A DNA stretch of 2,144 bases from Escherichia coli (GTDB taxonomy: Bacteria; Pseudomonadota; Gammaproteobacteria; Enterobacterales; Enterobacteriaceae): assembly GCF_003334385.1 (NCBI RefSeq), contig NZ_QOWN01000102.1; one strand, 5' to 3'. The translations under genes were made by a program, and so were the position numbers. Position 1 is the stretch's first letter; each line of letters begins with the position of its first letter. Shown in pieces: positions 416 to 1,153 of this stretch. The notes below the pieces were generated by a model, which was not told where the DNA came from, made no database searches, and saw only the letters and a list, made by a program, of their open reading frames with translations.

Positions 416-1153
416 TCTGGTGAGACACTGGTTCTTGGTTCTGCCACAACAGTAACAGGAACAAAATTTGGGGGGGCGTTACTTTCGGGTGGGGCGGCGA
501 CTTTTGATGCAGTCACGACGGCTATGGCGTCTGCTGCCCCTGCTCTTGGAGCAATGGCTGTGGTCGCTGGGCCAATGGGATATGACCTTCTCGCTAATGA
601 TGGGCGTGCCGGGAAGGCTCTGAGCGATGGGCAGTTAATAAATTCTCAGGCTGAAATGTGTTACTGGACCAGTAGTTGTCCTTTAGATAGCCCACATGAG
701 AATGATAATTCGTCAGGGAGTCAGCCGAATGTTGGGAAGGATTTGACGGATGAAGAGAAGAACTGCCTGGCCGGCGGCAGTACGGGAAGCCCGGGAGGAT
801 GGGGACCAGAAGATGAGAATAGCGCAAGGGATCGTATGCAGCATGAACGGTATAAAGATGAATTGCGACAGAAAATGGGAAAACCCGACGTTACAGATTC
901 AAATTTGAAAAATATTATAGACGATCTTTATCGGCCAAATGCAAAAGTAGGAAGTGGAAGCACAGCAGATGCTGTTCGTTATGAATTGGCCACAGGTGAA
1001 AAAGTTGGTGGTAGAGGACATGTATTGAAAGCACAGGATTATACAAGGGCTTTACAGGATTGGTTGGATAAGAATCCAACAGCATCTCCAGGGGATCGAG
1101 CAGCAGCAGAAAACGTTCTTCAGGATTTACAGAATGCTTTGGGAGGCAAGTAA
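2..1153 (+). CDS. rhs: Rhs family polymorphic toxin, C-terminal portion (5'-truncated by window edge): end of conserved core plus variable CT toxin region
   Basis: Open frame from the window edge to TAA at 1151-1153, with no in-frame stop upstream, so the GTG at 5 is not the real start. The translation carries the conserved Rhs core C-terminus (..[54 protein letters not shown]), which I recognise from E. coli-type Rhs proteins. Hand-counted GC on the first 60 nt is about 65%, dropping to the low 40s after about nt 660. Confidence 0.92.
416..1150 (+). other. Rhs variable C-terminal (CT) toxin region, family unassigned; N-terminal Gly/Ala-rich hydrophobic part and polar, charged C-terminal part
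   Basis: It lies immediately after DPLGL, where Rhs proteins carry their polymorphic toxin domains. Composition changes within it: codons 142-197 are Gly/Ala/Thr/Val-rich, while codons ~275-382 are rich in D/E/K/R. An immunity-like small ORF follows directly. Confidence 0.75.
1141..1146 (+). promoter_or_regulatory. Shine-Dalgarno (GGGAGG) for the immunity ORF, embedded in the 3' end of rhs
   Basis: GGGAGG at 1141-1146 with 6-nt spacing to ATG 1153. Confidence 0.55.

Follow-up and report, generated by a model that had tools for sequence, protein, structure and literature searches.

The question raised by this locus is what is encoded by the tail of an Rhs protein, and by the small gene that overlaps its stop codon, in a stretch of 2,144 bases of Escherichia coli DNA (RefSeq assembly GCF_003334385.1, contig NZ_QOWN01000102.1; hereafter the window, meaning the whole stretch that was analysed). 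An earlier reading made from the letters alone (the original prediction) had taken everything between the DPLGL motif and the rhs stop codon as the payload of a polymorphic toxin that could not be placed in a characterised family, and had regarded the downstream open reading frame (ORF) as a probable immunity gene. The region from nt 416 to nt 1530 is a standard Rhs polymorphic-toxin tip together with its immunity gene. What is new here is that an unnamed, very large toxin family with a dedicated DUF immunity partner was recognised in an Rhs tail, and a ribonuclease (RNase) activity is tentatively proposed for it below.

The whole window is chromosomal E. coli DNA. Its sequence agrees at 100% identity with positions 415503-417646 of strain 300709 (NZ_CP025903.1), and 129 of 5,426 complete E. 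coli genomes contain at least 80% of it. On the + strand, which also carries the immunity and transposase genes, frame 2 is open from the window edge through nt 1150 and is closed by TAA at nt 1151-1153; this rhs ORF enters the window from upstream, and its start lies outside. A Pfam scan placed the RHS domain PF03527 at ORF residues 35-69 (nt 104-208, E 5e-14) and gave no match downstream of it on the rhs ORF, even at E<=10. The 3' end of the Rhs core (the YD-shell plug, nt 2-415) ends in the PxxxxDPxGL autoproteolysis motif, in which DPLGL is encoded by GATCCTCTTGGGTTG (nt 401-415); the variable C-terminal region then begins, and directly after the motif the sequence departs from that of other E. 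coli rhs copies. The A of the immunity ATG (nt 1153) is the last base of the rhs TAA, which gives the sequence TAATG and a one-base overlap of the two ORFs. The location of DPLGL, the extent of the ORF to nt 1150 and the C-terminal peptide had all been read correctly in the original prediction, and the small downstream ORF overlapping the rhs stop was confirmed, with 125 aa from nt 1153.

The 245 residues that follow DPLGL were found to comprise three parts and not a single domain, namely a variable N-terminal part (nt 416-724), a conserved linker (nt 725-820), and the toxin domain proper, which has 110 aa and five helices (nt 821-1150) and was delimited by family search, conservation, structure prediction and a drop in GC content. 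The idea of a variable C-terminal tail after DPLGL thus stood, with the toxin domain confined to nt 821-1150; nt 416-820, which had been counted as toxin, is instead a variable, partly hydrophobic region plus a linker in common with a contact-dependent growth inhibition (CDI) toxin. GC content is 0.52-0.62 up to about nt 825, with core-like values of 0.55-0.58 in nt 416-724, and 0.35-0.45 across the toxin and immunity genes, the toxin domain having about 0.39 from roughly nt 826.

Homologues of the toxin domain were collected using a word-index search and an exhaustive hmmsearch. The former returned 88 toxin homologues, none of which has a Pfam domain on record and some of which are named Rhs or filamentous hemagglutinin. 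In the latter, a profile of 28 sequences was compared with 1.84 billion representatives, clustered at 50% identity, and at E<=1e-3 this gave 2,401 clusters, of which 1,619 also pass E<=1e-10. The domain was located at the extreme C-terminus in each of the 150 matches listed. Pfam domains found on 134 carriers were PT-VENN (8), RHS (4), Fil_haemagg_2 (3), PAAR (2), WXG100_2 (2), and PT-HINT (2), to which neighbours in AFDB50 add CpnT-like, pre-toxin-TG, and type VII secretion system (T7SS) signal carriers from Actinobacteria, Bdellovibrio, Planctomycetes, and Paenibacillus; the family as a whole is spread over Proteobacteria, Actinobacteria, Bdellovibrio, Planctomycetes, and Firmicutes. Judged from sequence comparison, C-terminal placement on such diverse carriers is the classic signature of a polymorphic-toxin domain, and the domain in the window is a member of a very large family and no rarity.

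Rhs C-termini without annotation are common. The earlier statement that this one could not be placed in a characterised family was borne out by Pfam (E<=10), NCBIfam, and PADLOC, none of which gave a match on the tail; a profile search of the Protein Data Bank (PDB) with the toxin gave nothing below E 0.35, and a PDB search with the single sequence matched the N-terminal part of the C-terminal region (CT) only. Inspection by eye for HEPN (Rx4-6H), Fic/Doc (HxFx[DE]GNxR), HNH/AHH, and Walker motifs revealed none of them. RhsF/RhsFI of enterohaemorrhagic E. coli (EHEC), which has a different nuclease fold (PMC7618764), and YxiD of Bacillus subtilis 6633, which has the BECR/Ntox50 fold (PMC12700104), were rejected as matches. 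No paper was found in literature searches on the sequence motif, the immunity accession, or DUF7674. The family is unnamed in Pfam, NCBIfam, and PADLOC, very large and cross-phylum, and a published characterisation was not found in the literature searched.

Over 139 representatives, R326, E328, H340, K343, D365, Y310, R311, S320, T321, W354, and D375 in ORF numbering (domain positions 53, 55, 67, 70, 92, 37, 38, 47, 48, 81, and 102, respectively) are at least 94% conserved. The codons of H340 and K343 are located at nt 1019-1021 and nt 1028-1030, and the family consensus around them is GG.xHxQKA, with a variable residue before the His. A divergent Rhs-CT of Proteus mirabilis (37% identity) retains Y, R, H, K, DR, and D. 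AlphaFold2 produced a confident five-helix model (predicted local distance difference test score, pLDDT, 89.1; predicted template modelling score 0.82) in which H340 is at the first turn of helix 4 and a GSGST loop caps the N-terminus of helix 3. The domain is strongly hydrophilic (grand average of hydropathy, GRAVY, -1.0), the median isoelectric point (pI) of the family is 9.1, and the C-terminus reads ...NALGGK, without the GYGI sequence that binds CysK.

The gene at nt 1153-1530 (125 aa plus stop) was assigned to the DUF7674 family. Its Pfam match to PF24722, at E 1.1e-3 and over 95 of the 111 model positions, is a borderline one and was the only one, with nothing from NCBIfam or PADLOC scans of the ORF and no similarity to any PDB chain in a profile search. 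The ORF aligns at 34-39% identity with neighbours carrying PF24722 on record, and the Proteus neighbour matches the model at E 1.9e-6. The gene following a toxin homologue was inspected at eight other loci, comprising three metagenomic or metagenome-assembled Rhs loci, an unclassified carrier of 2,622 aa with no Pfam domain on record (P0107), a CdiB/CdiA system, an orphan VENN module of Gilliamella, the Proteus Rhs, and the alternative Rhs of E. coli MRSN346647. A protein of 119-167 aa is encoded by the next gene in all eight (8/8); five of these proteins have PF24722 on record or by scan, a sixth (the MRSN346647 ORF) is 96% identical to that of the window, and the remaining two align at W30, P35-P36, A83, G85, E88, G109, S112, and W119. 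Because a homologous small ORF follows each toxin homologue in these loci, there is strong comparative evidence that the downstream ORF is the cognate immunity gene of the toxin. The toxin/immunity signature that had been noted from the position of the ORF is strengthened by its identification as a DUF7674 protein whose homologues follow the toxin in Rhs and CdiA loci alike, and the two domains form one cassette that moves as a unit, irrespective of how the toxin is delivered. The immunity protein is acidic (pI 4.8) and was modelled by AlphaFold2 as an all-helical bundle of seven helices (pLDDT 94.7). On the Gilliamella contig, small ORFs resembling SymE_toxin (PF08845; L014 2245-2379 and 4592-4753, opposite strand) flank the orphan VENN-toxin/DUF7674 module, which is itself downstream of a full-length cdiA.

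The part of the tail between DPLGL and the linker contains an Ala/Gly-rich hydrophobic stretch (nt 467-583; maximum Kyte-Doolittle value 1.6 over 19 residues) and two cysteines (nt 659-661 and 677-679) in a CxxxxxC arrangement, the spacing of which equals that of the cysteine pair in CdiA-CT UPEC536, the CdiA C-terminal region of uropathogenic E. coli 536. With phmmer, CT residues 24-175 were aligned with the N-terminal half of CdiA-CT UPEC536 (5j5v_B) over about 150 residues at E 1.5e-7, at low alignment accuracy; BLASTP against the same protein retains a 16-residue linker motif alone. The linker, PN(I/V)GKDLTDxEK...GSG...P..E(N/D), which in the window ends in GGWGPEDEN, also occurs upstream of the Ntox28 toxin in CdiA-CT UPEC536 and its relatives. 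In MRSN346647-type genomes, DPLGL is followed by a quite different sequence with its own hydrophobic stretch (GPPGMLVGAAVGTVVIGGGIIIY) to which the same toxin is attached, and near-identity of the rhs to that of the window resumes at the PNVGKDLT codons, at nt 725. On the basis of this resumption of DNA identity and of the common motif, nt 725-820 are read as a recombination joint between delivery modules and toxin cassettes. Two distinct junctions can be told apart in this region, a recombination breakpoint at about nt 725 (L007 8474-9074) and, about 100 bases later, the GC drop at the start of the toxin domain (about nt 826); the linker is therefore GC-rich like the Rhs core, yet it moves with the AT-rich cassette.

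The corresponding part of CdiA-CT UPEC536 is a cytoplasm-entry region, and import requires FtsH in the target cell (PMC7690452; PMC9086364). From the hydrophobic stretch, the phmmer alignment and the strain comparison, nt 416-724 probably represent an exchangeable delivery or translocation module, a candidate for passage across a membrane into the cytoplasm. Like the CDI entry domains of the FtsH-dependent class (CdiA-CT UPEC536 and ECL; PMC9086364; PMC7690452), it is located between the cleavage motif and the toxin, has a CxxxxxC pair and hydrophobic helical character, and is exchanged independently of the toxin; unlike them, it has its cysteine pair near the C-terminal end of the region, whereas that of UPEC536 is near the N-terminus, and similarity outside the linker is marginal. 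The linker itself contains a third cysteine (nt 764-766, in EEKNCLAGG) that is kept in the E. coli Rhs versions and is absent from the linker of CdiA-CT UPEC536 (AEKVELGG). The chromosome of E. coli EC93 has an orphan 150-aa 'hypothetical protein' (L016 1285-1737; also L008 3802-4254), adjoining a decayed ISAs1 element and upstream of a DUF3969 gene and another rhs, in which the alternative hydrophobic module and the same linker are joined to an unrelated C-terminus of 45 residues (EIRNTYRSIKDAPQYPRG...), and which has the appearance of an orphan or truncated Rhs-CT that carries another toxin.

The distribution of the cassette was determined among the 5,426 complete E. coli genomes. DNA of the toxin and immunity genes (nt 827-1530) was found in 403 of them (about 7%), at a coverage of at least 80% and 98-100% identity in 397, while only 233 have nt 416-826 in full length. 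The locus of strain 300709 is part of a type VI secretion system (T6SS) cluster (tssB, tagH, tssM, and two hcp genes), with dnaQ and a tRNA-Asp gene on its upstream side and yafV on its downstream side; IS1 interrupts the cluster, the rhs coding sequence (CDS) is annotated as N-terminally truncated, and HKUOPY1 shows similar decay. The gene order in MRSN346647 and RIVM_C039205 is tssC-tssB / hcp-vgrG-rhs-immunity-ISEc1, with rhs frameshifted. The rhs copies examined in genomes that match the whole window at 100% are truncated. STEC005 has an intact Rhs of 1510 aa with a PAAR-like start (MSGKPAARQGDMT) and a C-terminal region identical to that of the window, encoded elsewhere in the chromosome, where pptA, yddH, and nhoA lie downstream. 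Because this intact protein bears the identical CT, there is a deployable carrier for the cassette, even though many of the copies are pseudogenes.

The system is of a conventional type, with a PAAR-Rhs carrier and its C-terminal toxin, an immunity gene that overlaps the carrier gene, an H-repeat insertion sequence (IS), and pseudogenised copies. It resembles the E. coli PAAR-Rhs effectors Rhs-CT1 to CT10 (Ma et al. 2017), and Rhs-CT/RhsI pairs generally, in its PAAR-like N-terminus, YD-repeat shell, DPxGL cleavage site, polymorphic toxin at the C-terminus, overlap with the immunity gene, and neighbouring Hcp and VgrG (PMC6730261). Rhs-CT1 to CT10 were described by recognisable toxin domains (for example MPTase4, REase-3, and Toxin_55; PMC6730261), whereas the toxin of the window has no Pfam model. 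In the host T6SS cluster, which has visibly decayed in a number of strains (L001 7239-9984; L006 4093-6754), an IS1 insertion is accompanied by partial tssJ, tagH, and tssM genes, and a truncated vgrG abuts rhs; the toxin/immunity pair has been kept at 100% identity despite this decay.

The mechanism that is favoured for this system is as follows. Autoproteolysis at DPLGL would free the 245-residue C-terminal fragment, the T6SS would deliver the toxin on the PAAR-like Rhs protein, and the toxin would act in the target cytoplasm as a metal-independent RNase, perhaps a tRNase. In this scheme H340, at the start of helix 4, would be the general acid/base, K343 together with R311 and R326 would hold the scissile phosphate, the GSGST loop capping helix 3 at its N-terminus would form a phosphate nest, and the acidic, all-helical DUF7674 protein would bind and block the toxin in the producer. 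We lean towards an RNase because the invariant residues of the domain include H, K, R, and D and it has no motif for binding metal, because a basic toxin is paired with an acidic immunity protein, because there is a faint structural and positional resemblance to the Ntox28 tRNase (H340 on the catalytic H178, and a hairpin with an NP turn), and because an AFDB50 neighbour of 40% identity is named Bacterial toxin 28 and the upstream linker is common to 536-type Ntox28 toxins. A further reason is the residue-pattern argument of Zhang et al. for small novel toxin folds, in which small all-alpha toxins with His plus an acidic/basic pattern were classed as predicted metal-independent RNases (PMC3482391). 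An RNase that uses H340 and K343 is put forward tentatively, as a reading that may well be correct but falls somewhat short of probable; an RNase of either this kind or the Ntox28 kind discussed next is moderately probable.

CdiA-CT UPEC536 (Ntox28/PF15605; PDB 5J43, 5J5V) was the point of comparison for the question of whether the domain is a true, very divergent member of Ntox28, that is, an anticodon-loop tRNase like CdiA-CT UPEC536 that is independent of CysK. This protein is the structural prototype of Ntox28, an all-helical tRNase activated by CysK, with an active site of D155, W176, H178, and E181 (PMC9086364), and the motif set of the family is D, K[DE], [DN]HxxE, and E (Zhang et al. 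2012, PMC3482391). The two proteins are alike in being small, all-helical C-terminal toxins of polymorphic systems, in having an Ala/Gly-rich N-terminal region and the PN(I/V)GKDLTDxEK...GSG linker upstream, and in having a His where the penultimate helix starts, then an NP turn and a final helix that ends in (N/S)AL.G; the carrier is CdiA of a type V secretion system (T5SS) there and an Rhs of a T6SS here. A confident profile or structural match to a characterised toxin family, which would have argued against the original prediction, was looked for and none was found: a Foldseek search of the PDB ranked 5j43_B first (E 0.67, TM 0.45), the other best folds being generic helical bundles, and CdiA-CT UPEC536 is, weakly, the best toxin-like fold neighbour. 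For profile comparison, the 3' end of UPEC536 cdiA was taken from NC_008253 and a profile of 19 sequences of the 536 toxin group was built, and hhalign was run with the single UPEC536 sequence, with the 19-sequence profile, and locally with a 139-sequence toxin profile. It pairs GG..H340..K343 with GGYWDH178..E181 (P 0.03-0.08), and thereby aligns the catalytic His, as well as the last helical hairpin with its NP turn (...NAL.G with ...SALKG). The AFDB50 neighbour A0A0X8D552, named 'Bacterial toxin 28 domain-containing protein', has 40% identity over 99 columns (E 5e-6), and the Pfam Ntox28 model detects UPEC536 itself at E 2.5e-3 only, which shows that coverage of the family is poor. The toxin ends in GGK and lacks GYGI, so CysK binding is not expected, in agreement with a CysK-independent enzyme.

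Several observations weigh against Ntox28 membership and against the RNase that draws on this resemblance. Shuffled profiles score as high in 5 of 60 column-shuffled and 7 of 60 block-shuffled controls, and for this reason the similarity (P 0.03-0.08) was rejected as sequence evidence; HMM against HMM comparison in both directions gave nothing in the toxin domain, and BLASTP against UPEC536 gave no significant similarity between the toxin domains. PF15605 was not detected on the toxin tail at E<=10 nor on any of 134 scanned family members (E<=0.1), the divergent Proteus member is likewise without it, and it is not on record among the 88 and 120 homologues listed in two word-index searches, the second of them made with the family profile. 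The family reads HxQK where Ntox28 reads [DN]HxxE, with Lys in place of Glu, and neither W176 nor E181 of UPEC536 has a conserved counterpart. The immunity proteins also appear unrelated, with no BLASTP alignment to CdiI of UPEC536. The Proteus member lacks R326 and E328, and these two residues are therefore not universally needed. Ntox28 membership is not established, and we consider it unlikely; the two may be distantly related, or may have converged on active sites of a similar helical-hairpin kind, and the faint resemblance to the Ntox28 tRNase is unproven.

The main alternative to an RNase is a nucleotide-using or protein-modifying activity, in which the domain would use a nucleotide or a phosphorylated small molecule instead of cleaving RNA, for example as a kinase or nucleotidyl-transferase with an essential protein as its substrate, or by depleting nucleotides. 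Here the glycine-rich GSGST loop, with its invariant S320 and T321 at a helix N-terminus, would bind phosphate, and the invariant His, Lys, and Asp residues (H340, K343, D365, and D375) would be the catalytic set; the loop fits such an enzyme as well as it fits an RNase, which counts against the preference for the latter. No significant similarity of the domain to any nuclease was found in the PDB profile, fold, or hhalign searches, and all-helical protein-modifying toxins such as Fic/Doc occur in polymorphic toxin systems (PMC3482391). This alternative is regarded as doubtful, both in its general form and in its assignment of the loop and the catalytic set. A bolder version, in which the domain would be the founding E. 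coli example of a cross-phylum toxin family of more than 2,400 clusters with an activity new among interbacterial toxins, is rather improbable; in such a case the GSGST nest and the His, Lys, and Asp residues might, for example, alter or use up a nucleotide, or a phosphorylated target that is essential, with DUF7674 as the dedicated immunity fold. A DNase or a toxin of the cell envelope or membrane is less likely still, and quite improbable. Many Rhs C-termini are DNases (PMC6730261), but this one showed neither a motif that chelates metal, such as HNH, AHH, or PD-(D/E)XK, nor a nuclease match in Pfam. The hydrophobic stretch at nt 467-583 would suit a membrane toxin; against this, the toxin domain is strongly hydrophilic, it follows unrelated upstream sequences in representative clusters, and in the Proteus Rhs just a short N-terminal stretch of hydrophilic character separates it from DPWGL. 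The hydrophobic stretch is thus part of the delivery region, not of the toxin. Lastly, the cassette in the source genome might be a decaying remnant, an rhs pseudogene that is not secreted and of which only the immunity gene matters, against kin that fire the toxin; this concerns deployment and not the identity of the domain. Annotation marks the rhs CDS as either truncated or frameshifted in 300709, HKUOPY1, MRSN346647, and RIVM_C039205, the T6SS cluster is also disrupted in the first two, and the window copy may accordingly not be deployed, which is a further point against the favoured mechanism as it applies to this genome. However, the CT and immunity frames are intact in the window, conservation is 98-100% in 397 genomes, an intact carrier of 1510 aa exists, and internal promoters can express Rhs-CT/immunity pairs alone in Salmonella and EHEC (PMC7618764), so that a mere remnant is judged to have little probability.

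Downstream of the cassette, the start of an ISEc1 transposase gene (ISAs1 family, 'H-repeat') is located at nt 1999-2144, where it is cut by the window end; it was assigned from the RefSeq annotation of the identical locus and from the ATG at nt 1999. ISEc1 H-repeats are the usual companions of E. coli Rhs elements. The transposase gene begins 469 bases 3' of the immunity gene (L001 13999-15135 for the copy in 300709), and ISEc1 was found 3' of the cassette, intact or decayed, in every E. coli locus examined, including those at different chromosomal positions. The spacer between the immunity gene and the IS (nt 1531-1998) is AT-rich (GC 0.26-0.35) and contains a single ORF, of 39 codons (nt 1638-1757); it has no Rfam match. 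A scan for promoters and terminators gave only weak matches to the consensus (9 of 12), which were not clearly above shuffles. After the ISEc1 copy in 300709, a second rhs, which is frameshifted, is followed by two small downstream ORFs (L001 15732-20095), in the manner of a tandem array of Rhs tips.

The same toxin/immunity cassette spliced at a conserved linker onto different upstream modules illustrates modular exchange among these effectors. One of the upstream modules resembles the FtsH-dependent CDI entry region, which touches the question of whether T6SS Rhs toxins reach the periplasm and are then imported. Rhs, CdiA, and related polymorphic toxins have repeatedly been a source of enzymes with new chemistries, and assigning an activity to this domain would annotate thousands of effectors at once and would give DUF7674 a function.

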